Of a stretch of DNA of 64,000 nt, positions 43,093-63,387 are shown piece after piece; the stretch's first letter is position 1, and each line of letters starts with the position of its first letter. The notes beneath the pieces were generated by a model that was not told where the DNA came from, searched no databases, and saw only the letters and a list, made by a program, of their open reading frames with translations. The stretch is from a virus (lineage: Duplodnaviria > Heunggongvirae > Uroviricota > Caudoviricetes), in IMG/VR virus record IMGVR_UViG_2706796742_000001, positions 23,511 through 87,510 of that record. One strand, written 5' to 3'. The translations under genes and the position numbers were made by a program.

Positions 43093-43851
43093 ATGAAGGG
43101 AAATAGAATGAGTAGTATTATTGCATTTACTGGAAAGGCACGTTCTGGAAAAGACACCTCATGTTCTATTGTCAAGAATATCTTAGAAGATGAGTATGGT
43201 TACAATGTTGCAGTAATGGCCTATGCAGACAATCTTAAGCTGTCTGCGTCAAAGATATTTGACTTGACATGGAATGACCTTTACGGAGAAACTAAAGAGA
43301 CTCCACAGGTTTTTGATTTATCATACCCTGAACTTATGAGTAAAGTTACGGAAGCTATGGAGTTCACCTTCAGAGATGAACGTTACCATATGGACTTTAA
43401 GCTTATGTCTGAGTTAACCGGACGATTAATCATGGAACTTAAGAAGGTTGCTAAGCCAACTCTATTGACACGTCTGGGATTTAGCAAGAAGTATAAATTC
43501 TCATCAAGACAAATTCAACAGATTTGGGGTACTGAAGTTATCCGTAAAGTTATGGGTGACAAATTCTGGGCTAAAGACCTAGAAAAACGAATGGTAAATT
43601 TCTTTGATGTTTGCTCACTTAGGAATCAAGATGGTGTTGTTTTAATCAGTGACTTAAGGTTTGACTCTGAAGCTGAGTGGCTGAGTAGATTTGCACACCA
43701 GACTATTGAAGTAAAAAGAGACAATGTGGACAAGGTTTCATCACATGTTTCAGAAAATGGAATTTCTACCAAATATGCGCGTGACATTATCCAGAATAAT
43801 GGTACTCTTGAAGACCTTGAAAGCAAGCTAAGAGCTATCCTGAAAATTTAA
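43093..43851 (+). CDS. deoxynucleoside monophosphate kinase (T4 gp1-like)
   Basis: P-loop FTGKARSGKDTS; C-terminus NNGTLEDLESKLRAIL recalls T4 dNMP kinase as remembered. Confidence 0.65.
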   Translation: MKGNRMSSIIAFTGKARSGKDTSCSIVKNILEDEYGYNVAVMAYADNLKLSASKIFDLTWNDLYGETKETPQVFDLSYPELMSKVTEAMEFTFRDERYHMDFKLMSELTGRLIMELKKVAKPTLLTRLGFSKKYKFSSRQIQQIWGTEVIRKVMGDKFWAKDLEKRMVNFFDVCSLRNQDGVVLISDLRFDSEAEWLSRFAHQTIEVKRDNVDKVSSHVSENGISTKYARDIIQNNGTLEDLESKLRAILKI

Positions 43852-54749: not shown

Positions 54750-55946
54750 ATGAACAAAGTACAAATTATTAAAAAGAATGGCTCACTTGAAGAACCGGAT
54801 ATCAAAAAAGTTTTAGCAGCAGTCACAAAGTCGGCTAACAGGGTTGGGTATAAAGAACTCCCACCAGATGTTACCCAAGCTCTTGAGTCAGCATTTATGA
54901 GGATTCTGGTAAAGTCCACTAAGCAGAATAATTTACTCGTTTCAGTAAATGATATCCACAGTATCGTTGAAGGTGCTTTGGCAGAAGTAAATCACGAGAT
55001 TTATGAGTCTTACTCAACATACAGAAATTACCGTAAAGAGGTTGCTCAAAATTGGGATGAACTTTACCAAAAGACTAAAGACACACTCTTCTTAGGTGAC
55101 CGTGAAAACGCTAACTTTGACAGTAGTTTAATTTCTACAAAAGGCTCAATTATTCGTGGTTACCTGACTAAAGAAATCTTTAAACAGTACCATTTAACAC
55201 CAGAGGAACTTGAAGCCATTGAAAAAGGGTTTATCTACATCCATGACTTAAGAGACCTAATTTTTGGTGGGATTAACTGTTGCCTGTTTGACATTGGTAA
55301 AGTACTGAAAGGTGGCTTTGAAATGTCTGGCATCGAATACTGTGAACCAAAATCTGTACTGTCAGCCTTACAAGTTATTGGTGATGTAGTGCTTTCAGCA
55401 ACTGCACAGCAATTTGGTGGTTTTACTTTAGCAGAGATTGATAAGGTGCTTGTACCGTATGCTAAGAAGTCTCTACGCTATCATGCTGAGAAAGCAGCAT
55501 CTTACGGTATTCCTAAAGAACATTACCATAATTATGTCATGGAGCAGCTACAGCTTGAATTAACACAGGGTTTCCAGTCACTAGAGATGAAGCTAAACAC
55601 TGTACCTTGTAGCCGTGGTGATTTTGCATTCACAACTTTAACATTTGGTTTACTTGACTCAGACATGTCTAATGAAGACAACCGACTACAATACATGATT
55701 GCAAACACCATTCTTGATGTTCGCATGAATGGACAAGGTAAGAGCAAGAAGCCTGTTGTATTCCCTAAACTGGTTTATATTCATGACCAGAAGAGACACG
55801 ATGAGAATATCTGTCAAGGTCAACTGTACAGTAAAGCTATTGAGTGTTGCTCTAAAGCAATGTATCCAGACTTCTTAAGCGTATCTGGTCATGGTGCTGT
55901 AGCAGAAGCTTTTGAGCGTTCTGGCAAGGTAATTTCACCGATGGGT
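54750..55946 (+). CDS. nrdD: anaerobic ribonucleotide reductase NrdD, exon 1
   Basis: 399 codons ending ...KVISPMG; frame is closed by a stop that is the first codon of the intron; joined to exon 2 gives ~714 aa. Confidence 0.75.
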
Positions 55947-56688
55947 TAACAAGCTCTATAGCTCATCTAAAACGTGCCTAAACAGGGAAACTCTACAGGT
56001 GTAGACAATCCTGTGCTAAATGATGTACGATGTAAGAAACTATATAAAATAGGAGTATTACATGCCAAATTATCATGTTACTGAGGACGGAAGAGTCTTT
56101 AGGAAAAATGGTGTAGAACTTACGCAGTGGAAATCCAACACTGGTTATATGAAAGTAAGGTTTTATGGAAGGAAGAATCGTGACATGTATGTCCATAGGT
56201 TAGTTGCTGAAAAGTATGTACCTAACCCTAACAATCTTCCAATTGTAAAACACAAAGATGATAACAAACTGAACAACCATGCTTCTAACTTAGAATGGGG
56301 AACTCATTCTGAGAATGTTAAAGAAGGCTATGAGAATGGTTGCTACAAGTTTTGTAAGCGTTCATATGCTGTGAAGGCTACACATAAAGTGACAAAAGAA
56401 GTTATTGTTGCTAAGTCAATACGAGAGTTATCTAATGTACTTGGGTATAATCGCAAGACTATCTCTTCAATATTGAAGGGTGTAAAAGAGTATAATAACT
56501 TTGAACATGATTTTGAGTACATTTAAATGCCGAACGACTAACCGTGATGAATGTAGCGGTGTAGGGTCAAGCGACTCGAAATGGTACGCTACTTAGAAAT
56601 AAGTAGAAGATATAGTCTGGACTTACTGGTGACAGTAAGCAGCTTGAATAAAGCGGGGTAAGCGTAGCGAACTTACCTGAACAACAAG
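55947..56688 (+). mobile_element. group I intron interrupting nrdD, carrying an HNH endonuclease ORF
   Basis: exon 1 ends in T, intron ends in G; intron GCTCAT (~55960) can pair with exon end ATGGGT as P1 with terminal U-G; CTAAACAGGGAAACTCTACAGGTGTAGACAATCCTGTGCTAAAT resembles the T4 td intron core as remembered; exon joining restores ...SPMG|CRAFLSPYHNEDGEEFYVGRANIGAVSLNLP. Confidence 0.75.
56062..56526 (+). CDS. intron-encoded HNH homing endonuclease
   Basis: HRLVAEKYVPNPNNLPIVKHKDDNKLNNHASNLEWGTHSEN is an HNH motif; AGGAG RBS; lies wholly inside the intron. Confidence 0.7.
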   Translation: MPNYHVTEDGRVFRKNGVELTQWKSNTGYMKVRFYGRKNRDMYVHRLVAEKYVPNPNNLPIVKHKDDNKLNNHASNLEWGTHSENVKEGYENGCYKFCKRSYAVKATHKVTKEVIVAKSIRELSNVLGYNRKTISSILKGVKEYNNFEHDFEYI

Positions 56689-57636
56689 TGTAGAGCGTTT
56701 TTATCACCATATCATAACGAAGATGGTGAAGAGTTTTATGTAGGTCGTGCTAACATTGGTGCTGTATCTTTGAACTTACCAATGATTTATCAGTATTCTA
56801 AAGAGAATGGTTTGGATTTCTGGAAAGAACTTGATAAGTACCTAGAGATGATTCGCAGCTTCCACAAGAAACGCTACGAAATGATTGCTAATATGCCAGC
56901 AAGTTCTAACCCTCTTGCATTCACACAAGGTGGTCTGTACAAAGGGACTAAGAAACCTACTGACAAGGTTGGTTGGGATATCGTGAAGTCTTTCACAGCT
57001 TCTTTTGGGGTTACTGCACTTGATGAGTTATCTGTTCTTGCTGAGGGTAAACGACTTCATGAAGTTGGAAGCTGCAGTTTTGCATACGATGTTCTGGCAT
57101 ACATTAACATGAAAACTGAAGAGTTTAAGAACGAAGATGGTTTCTTGTATGCGGTATATGGCACTCCAGCAGAGTCATTGTGTGGAACTCAGCTAAAACA
57201 GTTCAGAGATATGTTTGGCGTTATCAAAGGTGTTTCTGATAAGGAATATTTTACAAACAGTTTCCATATGAATGTTGCAGCAGATATCTCACCATTTGAG
57301 AAGCAGGACTTAGAAGAACCATTCTTCCATATCTGTAGAGGTGGCAGAATCCAGTATGTAAGGGTAGCTAACCCAGAAAACTTACCAGCACTTAAAAGTT
57401 GTATTACAAGAGGTATGTTGAAGGGTTTTTATCAGGGACTCAACTTTGACTTAGCAATCTGTGAACATTGTGGTAACAGGCCAAAGGCTGATGTTGAAGA
57501 GTGTGAGGTTTGCCATTCACATGACATCTCTGTGATTAACAGGGTGTGCGGGTATCTGGGATGGACTAAGATTAAAGGTGAATCCCGAATGAATGATGCA
57601 AAAATTGCTGAGATTCGTGATAGAGTCTCTATGTAA
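56689..57636 (+). CDS. nrdD: anaerobic ribonucleotide reductase NrdD, exon 2
   Basis: C-terminal glycyl-radical region RVCGYLG and CxxC pairs; track ORF 56770 starts at an internal TTG. Confidence 0.75.
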   Translation, partial: CRAFLSPYHNEDGEEFYVGRANIGAVSLNLPMIYQYSKENGLDFWKELDKYLEMIRSFHKKRYEMIANMPASSNPLAFTQGGLYKGTKKPTDKVGWDIVKSFTASFGVTALDELSVLAEGKRLHEVGSCSFAYDVLAYINMKTEEFKNEDGFLYAVYGTPAESLCGTQLKQFRDMFGVIKGVSDKEYFTNSFHMNVAADISPFEKQDLEEPFFHICRGGRIQYVRVANPENLPALKSCITRGMLKGFYQGLNFDLAICEHCGNRPKADVEECEVCHSHDISVINRVCGYLGWTKIKGESRMNDAKIAEIRDRVSM

Positions 57637-58417: not shown

Positions 58418-58903
58418 ATGAATTACATGGAGATTCGACCATTTGACACAGCTAATGGTGAAGGGGTTCGTGTAAGCCTCTTCGTAGCTGGCTGTAAACA
58501 TCACTGTGAAGGCTGCTTTAACAGGGAGTCTTGGAAGTTTAATGCTGGTAAAGAGTTTACTTATGCAAACCTCTACGGCATCATTAAGTTAATGGATGAT
58601 AATGCTATCAGTGGGCTGTCAATACTTGGTGGGGAACCTCTGGATGACAGAAACATTCAAGAGGTCACCAACATATGCAAGCGTATTAAAACTGTTTATC
58701 CAGAAAAGTCTATATGGCTTTGGACAGGTTTTCAACTACACGAAAAAATCCACTTAGATGTTATGAAATATGTTGACGTGGTGATTGATGGTAAGTATGA
58801 TTCTTCTAAACCAACAGTTAAACCATATCGTGGTTCTGATAACCAAAACCTCTGGAGAAAAGAGTATGGATGGCAAGGCGATTGTCAATGGCGAGCAGAG
58901 TAA
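58418..58903 (+). CDS. nrdG: anaerobic ribonucleotide reductase activating protein (radical SAM)
   Basis: CKHHCEGC is a CxxxCxxC radical-SAM cluster motif; 161 aa; near nrdD. Confidence 0.75.
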   Translation: MNYMEIRPFDTANGEGVRVSLFVAGCKHHCEGCFNRESWKFNAGKEFTYANLYGIIKLMDDNAISGLSILGGEPLDDRNIQEVTNICKRIKTVYPEKSIWLWTGFQLHEKIHLDVMKYVDVVIDGKYDSSKPTVKPYRGSDNQNLWRKEYGWQGDCQWRAE

Positions 58904-59243
58904 ATCTCGTCGTAAAATTGGCTACGGGAAAGGTGAGATAATGATTATCTCTTTTAATAGTGCTTTATTAGGTACTTATAAGGTCAAGACCGAACTCCTT
59001 GATGAGTGGAAAAAGTATACAAACTCACTGTTCGGTAATGTTGGAATGGAAGCTTTAGCAGAGATTGAGAAGGCGGGAACATTCGAAGTTGTTGGTAAAG
59101 GCCACTTTACAATGTTCTACAGAACAAACCTAAACGTTGGTGACAGTATTGTTGGTGTTACTGAAGAAGAACTTAAAACATTTTGTGAAAAGATTGAGAG
59201 AGATACGAAATGGGAATCTGGAACAGTTTTAAATCAAAAATAA
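58866..59243 (+). CDS. hypothetical protein
   Basis: track ORF 58785..59243; internal ATG at 58866 with GGAGA RBS preferred; overlaps nrdG 3' end. Confidence 0.4.
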   Translation: MDGKAIVNGEQSKSRRKIGYGKGEIMIISFNSALLGTYKVKTELLDEWKKYTNSLFGNVGMEALAEIEKAGTFEVVGKGHFTMFYRTNLNVGDSIVGVTEEELKTFCEKIERDTKWESGTVLNQK

Positions 59244-59467
59244 AAGCAGCACTGGCATCACTAGGTATGCTCACTGGTGTTGACGTTACTCATCTCATGC
59301 AGAACTTCAAGATGGATGAGAAACTAGCTAATGAGATTATGAAAAGCATCTATGTAGGTCGTGGAAAAGGTGGTAAAAAACAAGCACATCGACCAACTGG
59401 TGCAGCAGCAATTAAACGTGCAGCTAAAAAAGCTCGTAACCGTAAACGTAACAAGAAGGCTAAATAA
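59210..59467 (+). CDS. hypothetical protein with highly basic C-terminus
   Basis: 85 aa ending KRAAKKARNRKRNKKAK. Confidence 0.35.
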   Translation: MGIWNSFKSKIKAALASLGMLTGVDVTHLMQNFKMDEKLANEIMKSIYVGRGKGGKKQAHRPTGAAAIKRAAKKARNRKRNKKAK

Positions 59468-59790: not shown

Positions 59791-59802
59791 ACAGATACTA
59801 TA

Positions 59803-59830
59803 AGGGGACTGTAAAGGTTCCCTTTTTTAT
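59803..59830 (+). terminator. intrinsic terminator
   Basis: GGGGA ... TTCCC hairpin followed by TTTTTTATTTT. Confidence 0.5.
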
Positions 59831-59842
59831 TTTGGAGATAAT

Positions 59843-60358
59843 ATGTATCTGTCAAATCTGAAACGTTCGGTTGCAATGTCAGTTCTAAGACTCAGCTTTG
59901 AGGAACGTCAAGAGTTCATTGACACCCACCAATATGACCCTTCTAACTCTAATCACATGATTCTCTGGAATCGTGATAGTACTCGTGAAAGAGCACTATT
60001 CCGCTATTACCCACATTACACCATAGATAACCTGTATGAATGTTTTGTTGTAAAGAACACCATTACAGTACTCAATAAGCTTTGTAGATACACAGGTAAC
60101 CAGTCTTTCACACTAGGCCACCATAAACCTGTTACAAAAGGTGGTGAGCATCACTGTGCGAACTGGTTTATCCAAACTAAAACTGATAACCAGAAGCAAG
60201 GAGATAATCTTCTAAGCACTCCTAAGATGACCTATGAAGAGCAAGAGAAATATATCAAAAATAATATGCCAGATGTGCTTGACAACAACTATACAGATTT
60301 GGCAATATCTCTCCTGTTGAAGTTCGAGACAGTTTATAGGGCAACTTACAATGGCTAA
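59843..60358 (+). CDS. hypothetical protein with HNH-like motif
   Basis: LGHHKPVTKGGEHHCANWFIQTKTDNQKQGDN resembles an HNH core; 171 aa. Confidence 0.4.
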   Translation: MYLSNLKRSVAMSVLRLSFEERQEFIDTHQYDPSNSNHMILWNRDSTRERALFRYYPHYTIDNLYECFVVKNTITVLNKLCRYTGNQSFTLGHHKPVTKGGEHHCANWFIQTKTDNQKQGDNLLSTPKMTYEEQEKYIKNNMPDVLDNNYTDLAISLLLKFETVYRATYNG

Positions 60359-60629
60359 AGAGAAGTGGGAAATTTTACCATTAGTGAGTGAAGGTGGTAA
60401 CGGTTGTGAGATGTACATGATACGAGGTCATGTTCCAGAACCAATTGCACTTGAGATGGTAAACAATTTTACAGATGGTTCTTACAAAGACTTAGGAGAA
60501 CCAACTGTCAAGCAACAATGGGTTAAACCTGTACCAGACAGCACAGGTAACTGTAGTGTACTTTATCACGTTGTAGACCCTGCAAAATGCAAATCTGCAA
60601 TGGCAGTAACAAACGTAACTTTTGATTGA
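60351..60629 (+). CDS. hypothetical protein
   Basis: 92-aa ORF. Confidence 0.4.
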   Translation: MAKEKWEILPLVSEGGNGCEMYMIRGHVPEPIALEMVNNFTDGSYKDLGEPTVKQQWVKPVPDSTGNCSVLYHVVDPAKCKSAMAVTNVTFD

Positions 60630-61522
60630 GAGAGAAAACCATGAAAACATCTATCCGTGTTACAGTTCATTCACCAACTAAAGGAACTCATGAAGAAGAG
60701 TTTAACATCATCCAATTCCCTTCTGGTGAGATTGGTGGAAACTTTTCACCAGAGTTTGTTGATTTTACTGCTTATGCAGCATCATCTATCAACAATGTGG
60801 TTATGATTGTAAAAGGTTATGATAAAGATACATTGTTTGCTGTGGCACTTGCTAAAGAGGCGGTGGACAACTTAGTACCTCATAAGTTTGCTATGAAGAC
60901 CATTATCTTTTACTATTTGCCAAATGCACGCTATGACCGTCACATGTTTAAAGGTGATGCAGCAGCTTTGAAAGTGTTTGCACAACAGGTTAATGCAATG
61001 GGTTTTGATGCAGTCTGTGCAGTTGACCCTCACAGCTATGTACCAGATAACCTGTTTAACTGTTTCCAGGGTATTCCTCAAAATGAAATTGCAGTCCACT
61101 ATGCAAATGACCCACTTGTTGATTACTTAGTAGCCCCAGATGCAGGTGCTTCTAAGAAGATTGCAGAAACTGCTAAAGAGGTGGATAAACCATACATCAC
61201 AATGTCTAAAGTACGTAACCTTAAGACTGGTGAAATTACTGGTATGCGAATCCTTGATGATGTTGATTTGACCGATAAAACTGTTATGATTCTCGACGAT
61301 ATCTGTGATGGCGGTCGAACCTTCATAGAAGCAGCTAAACATCTTCGTGAAGCAGGTGCAAAACGTGTGGAACTCTATGTAACACATGGTATCTTCTCTA
61401 AAGGTGTTGAAAACCTTCTTGACAATGGTATTGACCACATCTACACTACAAACTCTTTAGGGGAAGCTAAAGACCGTGGTTTAACACATTATGGTCAAGT
61501 TACTGTAGCAAACCTTGATTAA
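60626..61522 (+). CDS. ribose-phosphate pyrophosphokinase family protein (Prs-like; possible ADP-ribose pyrophosphate synthetase)
   Basis: CAVDPHS and PRPP-binding-like MILDDICDGGRT match PRPP-synthetase-family signatures; 298 aa; paired with a Nampt-like gene. Confidence 0.75.
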   Translation: MREKTMKTSIRVTVHSPTKGTHEEEFNIIQFPSGEIGGNFSPEFVDFTAYAASSINNVVMIVKGYDKDTLFAVALAKEAVDNLVPHKFAMKTIIFYYLPNARYDRHMFKGDAAALKVFAQQVNAMGFDAVCAVDPHSYVPDNLFNCFQGIPQNEIAVHYANDPLVDYLVAPDAGASKKIAETAKEVDKPYITMSKVRNLKTGEITGMRILDDVDLTDKTVMILDDICDGGRTFIEAAKHLREAGAKRVELYVTHGIFSKGVENLLDNGIDHIYTTNSLGEAKDRGLTHYGQVTVANLD

Positions 61523-61531
61523 AACTTTATA

Positions 61532-61552
61532 GGGGCTTAAAAGCCCCATTTT
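61532..61552 (+). terminator. terminator-like hairpin between the Prs-like and Nampt-like genes
   Basis: GGGGCTT-AA-AAGCCCC followed by ATTTT. Confidence 0.45.
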
Positions 61553-61568
61553 GAGAGAGATTAAAAAG

Positions 61569-63350
61569 ATGACTAAATCACTTTATGCAGTACCAGCAGG
61601 TTTAAATGCGGATGCTTACAAATCTGGCCATATTTATCAGTATCCTAGTGCAACAGAGTACTTGATGTTCAACCTGACACCACGTAGTGATAAATGGTTT
61701 AACAGTCCTTTAGCAATTGACGGTGTAGTTGCTTTTGGTATTCAACGTTTTGTTAAAGATTACTTGGTAGACCACTGGAATGCCACCTTCTTTGAACGTG
61801 ACAAAAAAGAAGCAATTGACGAAATCTTAGAAGTCATGAACGGTGTTCTGGGTAAAGATGCTATTGGTAGAGAACATTGGGAAGCACTTCACGACTTAGG
61901 TTATCTACCAGTTGAAGTATACGCTGTAGAAGAAGGCACAGTTGTTCCTATGCGTGTACCAATGATTGTCTTCCAGAACACTGTTTCAGGTTTCCATTGG
62001 GTAGCTGGGTATCTGGAAGATGCTTTCTCTGCTGAGATTTGGAAGGCTTGTACCATTGCAACTATTGCATTGCACTACAAACGTATCTGTAAGAAGTGGT
62101 CTGACCTTACTTGTGATAACGACTTACATTTGCCTTACCAGTGCCATGACTTTGCTATGCGTGGTATGTCAGGCTTTACTGATGACGCATTTAACGCTGT
62201 AGGACACTTAACCAGCTTTAAAGGAACTGATAGCTTCCCTGCTGTATATACAGCTAAACGTATCTATGGACAGTCCTACCCAATCTCTGAGATTGGTAGC
62301 TCTGTACCAGCCACTGAACACTCTGTAATGTGTGCAAACATTGCTTGGGAAGGTGGTAGTGAGTTGATTGAAGAAGAAAGACGCTTTAAAGGTGAGTTAC
62401 AAACCTTCCGTCGTTTCTTAACAGAAACTTACCCAACTGGTATTGCAAGTGTTGTTTCAGACACTTATAATTTCTGGAGAACTGTATCAGAAATCTTACC
62501 AGCACTTCGTAAAGAGATTATGGAACGTGACGGCAAACTGGTAATTCGTCCTGACTCTGGTGACCCTGTACATATTGTCACAGGTTATAAAGCAATCCAC
62601 TTAGAGTGTGCTAAAAAGGCTTACTATGAACACCTAAGCAAGCTGGAAGCCAGTGACACAATGTTGAATGCTGTTCTGAACATGAAGCTTGAAAACATCA
62701 ACTATGGTATTGCTGGATGGCTATTGTCAGAAGGCTACGAAATGGTTGTTGACAGAGAAGACTTTGAAGTTGCTGATACAGTGCTGTTGAAAAATGCCTA
62801 TATGGTTGGCTCTGCAAACGTTGTAACACGTCCTGTAGCAGAGATTGATGGGGCTATTAAGACCTTGTATAACATCTTTGGAGGGACTATCAACTCTAAA
62901 GGCTTTAAGGTACTGGATGAGCACATTGGCCTCATCTATGGTGACTCTATCACGTTGGAACGTGCAAACGAAATCCTGAAGCGTTTGTATGAAATGGGTT
63001 TTGCAAGTTCTAACGTAGTGTTTGGTGTAGGTTCTTACACTTACCAGTACATGACTCGTGACACCTTTGCATTTGCTGTCAAAGCAACTCTTGCAAGCAT
63101 TGGTGGTAAAGAGATTATGCTTGCAAAAGACCCTAAAACAGATAGTGGTGTTAAAAAGTCTGCTTTTGGTGGTGTAGCACCTATGTGGGATGGTGATAAT
63201 CTGAAAGCTGTGGATGGTTATGGATTCCAGAGCTTTGAAGATGTACTTGAACATCCAGCTTGTGCTTTACGTTTAGTCTTTAGCGAATCTGAGCAGTTTG
63301 GCTACACAACTCTTGGAGATATTCGAAATAATATTGACAAGCAACTTTAA
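61569..63350 (+). CDS. nicotinamide phosphoribosyltransferase family protein (Nampt/NadV-like)
   Basis: ~593 aa; family call rests on remembered Nampt architecture and its pairing with the Prs-like gene, no single diagnostic motif verified; ATG 61569 with GAGAGAGA RBS preferred over track TTG 61551. Confidence 0.7.
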   Translation: MTKSLYAVPAGLNADAYKSGHIYQYPSATEYLMFNLTPRSDKWFNSPLAIDGVVAFGIQRFVKDYLVDHWNATFFERDKKEAIDEILEVMNGVLGKDAIGREHWEALHDLGYLPVEVYAVEEGTVVPMRVPMIVFQNTVSGFHWVAGYLEDAFSAEIWKACTIATIALHYKRICKKWSDLTCDNDLHLPYQCHDFAMRGMSGFTDDAFNAVGHLTSFKGTDSFPAVYTAKRIYGQSYPISEIGSSVPATEHSVMCANIAWEGGSELIEEERRFKGELQTFRRFLTETYPTGIASVVSDTYNFWRTVSEILPALRKEIMERDGKLVIRPDSGDPVHIVTGYKAIHLECAKKAYYEHLSKLEASDTMLNAVLNMKLENINYGIAGWLLSEGYEMVVDREDFEVADTVLLKNAYMVGSANVVTRPVAEIDGAIKTLYNIFGGTINSKGFKVLDEHIGLIYGDSITLERANEILKRLYEMGFASSNVVFGVGSYTYQYMTRDTFAFAVKATLASIGGKEIMLAKDPKTDSGVKKSAFGGVAPMWDGDNLKAVDGYGFQSFEDVLEHPACALRLVFSESEQFGYTTLGDIRNNIDKQL

Positions 63351-63364
63351 AAGTATATGATAAG

Positions 63365-63387
63365 AGGCTCCTACGGGAGCCTTTTTA
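63365..63387 (+). terminator. intrinsic terminator
   Basis: AGGCTCC-TACG-GGAGCCT followed by TTTTT. Confidence 0.65.

Follow-up and report, generated by a model that had tools for sequence, protein, structure and literature searches.

The adps-namat gene pair of a Felixounavirus is very probably a copy of the NAD+ reconstitution pathway NARP1

The described NARP1 systems

Among the phages that have been sequenced, about 4% carry NAD+ reconstitution pathway 1 (NARP1), a major means of countering NAD+-depleting immunity with SIR2, TIR, SEFIR or DSR effectors. The scheme starts from a host defence, for example SIR2-HerA/Nezha, type I Thoeris, DSR or Kongming, that splits NAD+ into ADP-ribose (ADPR) plus nicotinamide. 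Adps then spends ATP on adding a pyrophosphate to the free ribose of ADP-ribose, which produces ADPR-pyrophosphate (ADPR-PP), and Namat swaps the pyrophosphate for nicotinamide, yielding NAD+ directly without NMN or an NMN adenylyltransferase (NMNAT).

NARP1 was discovered in genes 79-80 of phage Bas63, and genetic work on this operon validated it: deleting the two genes leads to SIR2-HerA sensitivity and abolishes NAD+ recovery, ADPR-PP appears in infected cells only when the operon and a defence system are both present, and the operon still overcomes SIR2-HerA when pncC and nadR are deleted from the host (Osterman et al., bioRxiv 10.1101/2024.02.11.579819). In an independent screen, deletion of g79 or g80 singly cut plating 1e4-1e6-fold on Sir2-HerA. 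Bas63 Adps, one of the query sequences that defined the Adps clade, purified poorly and was never obtained pure, and the in vitro chemistry comes from the enzymes of SpβL1. Purified SpβL1 Adps acts on ADPR and ATP, and its authors conclude that it is not a Prs; the control incubation, with ribose-5-phosphate as substrate according to the figure legend, gave no measurable product. In vitro, Namat can make NMN from PRPP, reaching about half the rate of human Nampt, and when PRPP and ADPR-PP are offered together NAD+ is its sole product. Of the Adps-clade genes, 97% have Namat within 10 genes, and in published trees the Namat linked to Adps groups apart from the Nampt linked to Nmnat.

The gene pair and its surroundings

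The whole stretch of DNA analysed here (64,000 nucleotides, hereafter the window) is Felixounavirus, 95-97% identical at the DNA level to many Felix O1-like phages of E. coli and Salmonella. The original prediction described adjacent, co-oriented Prs-like and Nampt-like genes, and both open reading frames indeed lie on the + strand where it placed them, separated by a spacer of 46 nt. The locus comprises the following elements.

59843-60358, + strand: ORF171, upstream gene co-oriented with adps
60351-60629, + strand: ORF92, upstream gene co-oriented with adps
60641..61522, + strand: adps, Prs family, putative ADP-ribose pyrophosphate synthetase of 293 aa, start ATG 60641
61532..61552, + strand: intergenic hairpin GGGGCT-UAAA-AGCCCC, then AUUUU; lies past the adps stop (61520-61522) and ahead of the namat start
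61569..63350, + strand: namat, Nampt fold, putative nicotinamide ADP-ribose transferase of 593 aa, start ATG 61569
63362..63385, + strand: terminator-like hairpin, 12 nt past the namat stop, with a 10-bp stem containing 5 G-C pairs and then a T run

The mechanical reading frames begin at upstream TTG codons (60626-61522 and 298 aa for adps, 61551-63350 and 599 aa for namat). The true starts are likely the ATG codons at 60641 and 61569, which we prefer because the resulting lengths equal those of the annotated Bas63 orthologues and a GAGAG-type ribosome-binding sequence precedes each. Both are real genes, with matches far above chance: the adps product is recognized in Pfam as Pribosyltran (E 2e-11) and Pribosyl_synth (E 3e-9) and in PHROGs as ribose-phosphate pyrophosphokinase (E 1e-98), and the namat product as NAPRTase (E 6e-35) and NAMPT_N in Pfam and as nicotinamide phosphoribosyl transferase in PHROGs (E 7e-201). 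The adps-namat order is found again in four unrelated phages, of Pseudomonas, Vibrio, Bacillus and Mycobacterium.

The intergenic hairpin (-12.8 kcal/mol, z -2.7) recurs in Bas63 with the same stem and one loop difference. Its interpretation as a terminator was rejected, as it is followed by only four T and falls short of the scanner's T-run rule; it is left as a conserved stem-loop, unexplained. The hairpin past namat folds at -17.4 kcal/mol (z -2.5). On the upstream side, a terminator-like hairpin at 59802-59824 precedes ORF171 and ORF92, none lies between these genes and adps, and the ends of both overlap or nearly abut the next gene. The two are probably on the same transcript as adps-namat, which does not imply a role in NARP1. 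ORF171 is 96% identical to bas63_0077, which is reported to counter retron Ec67. PHROGs places ORF171 (with a weak HNH match) and ORF92, as well as the 111-aa and 58-aa reading frames downstream of namat, in families of unknown function.

Sequence signatures of the two proteins

The window Adps is 80% identical to bas63_0079 over 293/293 aa, and up to 98.6% identical to other Felixounavirus copies. Among the NCBIfam models, it passes only the subfamily cut-off of TIGR01251 (121.9 vs 113) and fails 10 Prs equivalog or subfamily cut-offs by wide margins; on the equivalog models it scores 45-105 bits against cut-offs of 296-536, the best being 105.4 vs 296. With no NCBIfam equivalog threshold reached and no DTGGT loop, these two marks of a housekeeping Prs are absent, and the protein appears to belong to the phage Adps clade instead.

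A comparison of the active site with that of Prs, which the original prediction had proposed, was made by aligning six phage Adps with E. coli Prs. The catalytic Lys, Arg and His are kept, residues R97, D99, R100, H131, K190, R192 and D219-D220 of the window protein being invariant in this alignment, and a DGGRT loop stands where Prs has DTGGT. Two elements of the site are located as follows.

61208..61216, + strand: flexible loop K190-V-R192 of Adps, counterpart of K194/R196 in E. coli Prs, with the catalytic lysine
61295..61321, + strand: DDICDGGRT loop of Adps, replacing the ribose-5-phosphate/5'-phosphate-binding loop DDMIDTGGT of Prs

By homology, K190 would be the counterpart of the active-site lysine of SpβL1 Adps, where the K162A mutation abolishes NARP1 activity. 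The DDICDGGRT loop may make room for the ADP moiety. A loop of the form DDICDGG(R/A)T occurs in 4/6 of the aligned Adps; the exchange of DTGGT for DGGRT was rejected as a family-wide diagnostic of Adps against Prs, since ICP1 reads DGAAS and PJN02 SSYGGT at this place.

The two halves of adps differ in their relation to Bas63. The first ~550 nt have only 63-81% nucleotide identity to the Bas63 allele, and the C-terminal half of the protein is nearly all identical. The 5' half of the gene is a mosaic patch, and the N-terminal half of Adps comes as two diverged alleles. Judging from identity bands among 1,411 matching phage records, the allele of the window is the commoner one (~152 records at 90-99% identity vs ~88 at 60-80%). 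The existence of the two alleles may reflect diversifying selection.

The window Namat is 97% identical to bas63_0080 (578/593). The sequence closest to it in the PDB is that of SpβL1 Namat (9w5w/9w5x, E 1e-127), and the same entries, 9w5x/9w5w, are the top fold match of its AF2 model (pLDDT 94.1; TM 0.95 on target). All nicotinamide/NMN contacts are kept (D15, Y17, F195, R198, D221, A248, H251, R327, D329, G458-D459). The catalytic core, defined in SpβL1 numbering by F189, R192, D215, H, R306 and D308, is intact, as F195, R198, D221, H251, R327 and D329. Three further elements of the protein are located as follows.

61683..61700, + strand: selectivity-clamp loop (SCL) R39-S-D-K42-W43-F44, the β1-β2 loop, aligning to SpβL1 R37-T-S-R40-V-E
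63030..63062, + strand: selectivity-clamp helix motif (SCH) G488-S-Y-T-Y-Q-Y-M-T-R-D498, matching the published signature
62586..62849, + strand: insertion of 88 aa, residues 340-427, forming its own α/β subdomain, which SpβL1 Namat and Nampt do not have

The SCL is expected to have in third place either Arg or, with a fourth residue able to stack, Lys/Tyr; a Lys in third place, as in Bas63, leaves the stacking on adenine to the residue after it (Lan et al., PMC12774641). The window pair K42-W43 is identical to that of Bas63 and supplies such a stacking residue. Among 31 long homologues, 29 have K at position 42 and all 31 have W or Y at position 43. At the SCH, the window reads GSYTYQYMTRD, SpβL1 GSFTYQYNTRD and the Nampt HdNadV (9ke8) GAQTYQRNTRD. 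The window Namat bears both published ADPR-PP selectivity clamp signatures, the SCH and K42-W43, unlike the bona fide Nampt HdNadV. The 88-aa subdomain follows the RPDSGDP strand and precedes the GGT loop, is confidently folded in an orphan fold and is seen in Ounavirinae Namat. It could regulate the enzyme, provide a dock for Adps to channel the labile ADPR-PP, or act as a shield from a host counter-measure.

Competing readings and relation to known systems

We consider it very probable that the two window genes represent NARP1 as Felixounaviruses carry it. As such it is already known, an instance of NARP1 from the type family and not a new candidate. The basis for this reading is orthology to the validated Bas63 operon together with the conserved catalytic residues and the Namat-specific adenine clamp. 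The original prediction had preferred Adps plus Namat, and this preference is borne out by the orthology to Bas63 genes 79-80, the same order and flanks and the presence of the Namat signatures. The proteins of this phage would presumably share the chemistry and the anti-defence role of their orthologues. Some points weigh against the NARP1 reading: the in vitro chemistry comes from the SpβL1 enzymes, which are only about 29-46% identical, the N-terminal half of the window Adps is one step away from the validated Bas63 protein, and some 23 kb of the genome falls outside the window. The pair may also make some contribution to ordinary salvage, since Namat can make NMN from PRPP.

Could the pair be an ordinary Prs and Nampt, the first converting ribose-5-phosphate to PRPP, the second joining PRPP and nicotinamide to NMN, and host NadR/PncC completing NAD+? 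Such a pair would raise NAD+ salvage in general instead of reconstituting NAD+ directly. These are the names given by Pfam, PHROGs and most GenBank annotations, and the PRPP-dependent NMN synthesis that Namat keeps in vitro would fit such a route. This alternative, also entertained in the original prediction, is nevertheless disfavoured, and we regard it as very improbable: the Bas63 orthologues beat SIR2-HerA in a ΔpncC ΔnadR host, SpβL1 Adps was concluded not to be a Prs, the mixed-substrate product of Namat is NAD+ only, the window Adps stays at 45-105 bits where equivalog cut-offs lie at 296-536, and the adenine clamp present in the window Namat is lacking in Nampt. A pathway of the NARP2 type, in which, as in Vibrio phage KVP40, Nampt and an NMN adenylyltransferase of the phage make NAD+ from PRPP, nicotinamide and ATP, is more improbable still, to the point of being hardly credible. 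Membership of the second gene in the Nampt family would agree with it, and about 23 kb of this genome lies beyond the window; yet no CTP_transf_like/NMNAT or Nudix domain, and likewise no Macro or RyR domain, was found by Pfam in 25 window reading frames (five at the locus and 20 of at least 100 aa whose Bas63 counterparts have no specific metabolic annotation), and neither an NMNAT nor a Nudix gene is annotated in the complete 87.1-kb Bas63 genome. The claim that no NMN adenylyltransferase lies nearby thus stands for this set. The published trees also separate Namat from Nmnat-linked Nampt, and the clamp motif of the window is of the Namat type.

The remaining alternative is an extended NARP1, in which the pair is joined by an accessory enzyme encoded outside the operon, elsewhere in the genome: either an ADPR-1''-phosphate phosphatase with a Macro domain (NARP1-AP, which would counter aRES) or a glycosidase with a RyR domain (RyDEP, which would counter Thoeris signals). 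Gene 95 of Bas63 (bas63_0095, ‘putative phosphatase’) does have a Macro domain (PF01661, 32.3 bits vs a cut-off of 22), is 30% identical (E 2e-21) to a Macro protein that Pseudomonas phage Adele encodes two genes downstream of its namat, and is kept at ≥90% identity in about 197 phage records, two of which, on inspection, proved to be E. coli/Salmonella phages of Felixounavirus size. However, this gene lies ~8 kb downstream in Bas63, past the window's end, and this Macro family is also very common among phages without NARP1, such as T4-like ones, so that a link to NARP1 is not needed. Around the window operon itself, no Macro domain occurs within two genes (ORF171, ORF92 and the 111-aa downstream reading frame), and no RyR domain is found among the reading frames flanking the locus. 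We therefore consider the extended form unlikely, and the absence of NMNAT, Nudix, Macro and RyR genes from the scanned reading frames points to a plain two-gene NARP1, not to NARP2 or an extended form.

It is conceivable, though doubtful, that Felixounaviruses run a lineage-specific elaboration of NARP1 consisting of the Namat subdomain, the two Adps alleles and the unlinked Macro gene. In particular, the Macro-domain ‘phosphatase’ of the relatives could supply Adpp activity; if so, these phages would be aRES-resistant though outside the published operon-based definition of NARP1-AP. The Namat insertion subdomain, the adps mosaic patch, the intergenic hairpin and the relatives' unlinked Macro gene are minor details, undescribed so far, which could guide enzymology and leave the overall picture unchanged. 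Naming the pair NARP1 corrects the annotation, as most GenBank records still say Prs and Nampt, and the corrected annotation is useful for host range prediction where Felix O1-like phages are employed in typing and biocontrol.

How does the window compare with the known systems? With E. coli Prs (b1207, Class I ribose-phosphate diphosphokinase), Adps has in common the fold and the ATP and catalytic residues; it is only 23% identical, has DGGRT in place of the DTGGT loop and is shorter in its C-terminal region. The non-Namat comparison set for the second protein consists of Nampt/NadV enzymes (human NAMPT, Haemophilus ducreyi NadV 9KE8, Xanthomonas Nampt 7YQO and the KVP40 Nampt of NARP2). The type II phosphoribosyltransferase fold, the dimeric active-site residues and the catalytic histidine are common to this set and the window Namat, whereas Nampt has no adenine clamp, uses PRPP and needs an NMNAT partner, and in the window a clamp is present by motif and no NMNAT was found. 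SpβL1, a Bacillus phage, provides the biochemically and structurally characterised NARP1 (PDB 9W5W, 9W5X; Lan et al., NAR 2026, PMC12774641). Its Namat and that of the window are only 46% identical over aligned columns and differ by the SCL (K42-W43 vs SpβL1 R40), by the substitutions S190 to A and A362 to S, and by window insertions absent from SpβL1, of 88 aa (residues 340-427) and of ~15 aa near residue 260. The closest system is Bas63 (Escherichia phage JohannRWettstein, MZ501086), where namat is immediately followed by an additional gene of 114 aa, bas63_0081, not present in the window. Otherwise bas63_0079 (Adps) and bas63_0080 (Namat) stand in the same order and orientation as in the window, in a phage of the same genus, with the same neighbours (NrdG upstream and the gp77/gp78 homologues) and a common intergenic hairpin.

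The gene pair and its neighbourhood

The adjacent, co-oriented Prs-like and Nampt-like genes proposed in the original prediction are confirmed by open reading frames, Pfam and PHROGs. Each frame was called from a TTG start, with an ATG a few codons further on behind a GAGAG-rich ribosome-binding stretch, and the products from these ATG codons have the annotated lengths of their orthologues in Bas63 (Escherichia phage JohannRWettstein, MZ501086). The adps product carries the Pfam domains Pribosyltran and Pribosyl_synth and the namat product NAPRTase and NAMPT_N, and the PHROGs matches are very strong for both the first (E 1e-98) and the second gene (E 7e-201).

Features of the locus
59802-59824: terminator-like hairpin (hairpin scan, folding)
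59843-60358, + strand: ORF171, small gene, 96% identical to Bas63 gp77
60351-60629, + strand: ORF92, small gene; it and ORF171 apparently share a transcript with adps and namat
60626-61522, + strand: long ORF 1 from TTG; the later ATG at 60641 gives 293 aa (adps)
61532-61552, + strand: hairpin between adps and namat, GGGGCT-UAAA-AGCCCC plus AUUUU, 6-bp G+C-rich stem
61551-63350, + strand: long ORF 2 from TTG; the later ATG at 61569 gives 593 aa (namat)
63362-63385, + strand: terminator-like hairpin 12 nt past the namat stop (hairpin scan, folding)

Four co-oriented genes, ORF171, ORF92, adps and namat, are packed closely together between the two terminator-like hairpins. The intergenic hairpin, whose stem is identical in Bas63 with the loop as the sole change, could serve as an attenuator or an RNA-stability element. 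Since ORF171 resembles Bas63 gp77, reported in a preprint to counter retron Ec67, the four-gene stretch may be a small anti-defence cassette. The preprint calls gp77 GIY-YIG, whereas ORF171 gives a weak HNH-endonuclease PHROG match and contains an HH...N...H-like motif.

The neighbourhood of the pair is typical for Felix O1-like phages. The 3.5-kb region matched 260 phage records, with at least 80% of it covered in 227. Most of these, at 90-97% identity, are phages of Escherichia, Salmonella and Shigella that are named or classed as Felixounavirus. The first 25 kb of the window, where terminase, portal and tail genes lie, point likewise to this genus. Upstream of the pair are NrdA/B, an NrdD gene interrupted by a homing endonuclease, and NrdG. 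NrdD (anaerobic ribonucleotide reductase) is encoded in two ORFs, at 54750-55949 and at 56770-57636, on either side of the endonuclease ORF (56062-56526), the same arrangement as the two-piece join annotated in Bas63. The window also encodes a deoxynucleotide monophosphate kinase (43093-43851; Pfam DNMK, E 6e-23). Kongming, an NAD+-depleting system that NARP1 can neutralise, is described as being triggered by a phage dNMP kinase.

Orthology to the Bas63 operon and pathway variants

Bas63 genes 79-80 are the type NARP1 operon. Namat is identical to bas63_0080 at 578 of 593 residues (97%) and Adps to bas63_0079 at 234 of 293 (80%), the differences in the latter falling nearly all within the N-terminal 180 residues, and the flanks are collinear with Bas63, each 100-column block being 90-99% identical in nucleotides. 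Bas63 without the pair plates more poorly on SIR2-HerA and shows no NAD+ recovery, the phenotype is still seen in a ΔpncC ΔnadR host, and ADPR-pyrophosphate was detected only when operon and defence system were both present (bioRxiv 10.1101/2024.02.11.579819). An independent gene-essentiality screen found that loss of g79 (Adps) or g80 (Namat) alone carries a 1e4-1e6 plating cost on Sir2-HerA, with weaker deletion effects on retron Ec86 and hhe. The in vitro chemistry of NARP1 comes from homologues of the Bacillus phage SpβL1, because Bas63 Adps purified badly.

Could the pair belong to one of the related pathways instead? NARP2 requires an NMN adenylyltransferase, NARP1-AP a Macro-domain phosphatase within the operon (aRES preprint), and the RyDEP variant a RyR-domain gene. 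Pfam found no NMNAT, Nudix, Macro or RyR domain in 25 window ORFs (five of the locus and 20 others of at least 100 aa without specific annotation), and the remaining window ORFs have Bas63 counterparts, many annotated (structural, replication, nucleotide-reduction) and none as NMNAT or Nudix. The earlier observation that no NMN adenylyltransferase is seen nearby holds for the scanned ORFs and the Bas63 annotation. All three variants were rejected on the absence of the needed domains from the scanned ORFs, and the pair therefore reads as plain two-gene NARP1.

A Macro-domain gene does exist at a distance. Some 8 kb 3' of the Bas63 NARP1, at a position equivalent to one beyond the window end, the 261-aa product of bas63_0095 (L007:25279-26064 on the Bas63 sequence), annotated as a "putative phosphatase", has a Macro domain at its N terminus and is 30% identical (E 2e-21) to the Macro protein encoded two genes 3' of namat in the Pseudomonas phage Adele. 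About 197 phage records carry a copy that is at least 90% identical, and the two that were inspected are Felixounavirus-sized E. coli and Salmonella phages. The aRES preprint counted Macro genes only up to two genes from the operon, and genes of this type would therefore have been missed. By this similarity bas63_0095 may be an unlinked Adpp outside the operon-based definition of NARP1-AP, although the link is weakened by the frequent occurrence of the same Macro family in phages that lack NARP1.

Active sites and the Namat insertion

In an alignment of the window Adps with five other phage Adps and E. coli Prs (n=7), R97, D99, R100, H131, K190, R192 and D219-D220 are invariant in all seven; in E. 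coli Prs these are ATP/catalytic residues, the flexible-loop lysine among them, and the K162A change of the active-site lysine in SpβL1 Adps kills the pathway (bioRxiv 10.1101/2024.02.11.579819). Where the DTGGT loop of Prs binds the 5'-phosphate of ribose-5-phosphate, the window Adps and most, but not all, Adps read DGGRT, and we infer that its Arg might accommodate the ADP moiety. The TIGR01251 subfamily threshold is the sole NCBIfam cut-off that the window Adps clears (121.9 vs 113); it reaches no Prs equivalog threshold, falling short by a factor of at least 3 each time.

Lan et al. (PMC12774641) determined structures of SpβL1 Namat bound to nicotinamide and to NAD+ and describe a "selectivity clamp" of two elements through which the enzyme recognises adenine in ADPR-PP; one of the two, the β1-β2 loop (SCL), gives one more stacking residue. 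Mapping through a HMMER alignment to 9w5x shows that the window Namat keeps the catalytic and NMN-binding residues D15, Y17, F195, R198, D221, A248, H251, R327, D329, G458-D459 and G488-S489. Its clamp helix (SCH) reads GSYTYQYMTRD, against GAQTYQRNTRD in 9ke8, a bona fide Nampt from Haemophilus ducreyi, and its SCL, R-S-D-K42-W43-F, has the "Lys then stacking residue" layout described for Bas63 (PMC12774641). SCH positions 3 and 7 are nearly always Tyr/Phe among 51 homologues, position 7 being Met in seven. The best PDB fold matches of the AlphaFold2 model (pLDDT 94.1, pTM 0.92) are Namat crystal structures, with NadV and human NAMPT ranking behind.

62586-62849, + strand: Namat insertion, residues 340-427, ~88 aa, a confidently predicted α/β subdomain

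Namat of Felixounavirus and all other Ounavirinae-type homologues carry this insertion, which both the crystallised SpβL1 Namat and Nampt lack. No relative of the subdomain was found in Pfam, PDB or BFVD, and the insertions that other lineages carry at the same site differ in length and are unrelated to it.

Chromosomal Namat homologues of ~496 aa occur in Klebsiella, Cronobacter, Phytobacter, Kluyvera and Kosakonia, at 44-48% local identity (~55% of the query aligned) or 46-48% in full alignment. All 20 sampled shorter homologues (488-587 aa, chromosomal ones included) have GS at motif positions 1-2 and Tyr/Phe at position 3, and four have Met at position 7; the chromosomal motif agrees with the bacterial NARP1 that Lan et al. 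report (PMC12774641). A 547-aa family, phrog_12872, matches Adps at profile positions 37-224 and Namat, in its C-terminal half, at 236-534, a pattern suggestive of Adps-Namat fusions or truncated forms in Ackermannviridae.

L014:2764-4407 (Shigella phage Ag3 sequence): gp130, phrog_12872

Divergence from Bas63 and relation to the described system

The first ~550 nt of adps (the 60650-61170 patch) are 63-81% identical to Bas63, while the flanks are mostly above 90%. Searched by tblastn, the window Adps finds phage records of two classes: about 152 are 90-99% identical to it and about 88, Bas63 among them, are 60-80% identical. By these identities the 5' half of adps is a mosaic patch. A second strongly diverged patch, at 58900-59370 (23-59% column identity, with indels), covers small ORFs just 3' of nrdG. 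Bas63 has an extra 114-aa gene directly 3' of namat, bas63_0081 (L007:17509-17853; phrog_20372), absent from the window at ~63401.

The reading preferred in the original prediction, Adps plus Namat forming NARP1, proves correct on Bas63 orthology, the Namat signatures and the missed Prs equivalog cut-offs. What novelty remains is in the orphan subdomain inserted in Namat, the mosaic of Adps alleles and, possibly, a dispersed phosphatase partner. The feature itself is the already known and described NARP1, in the very genus where NARP1 was discovered.
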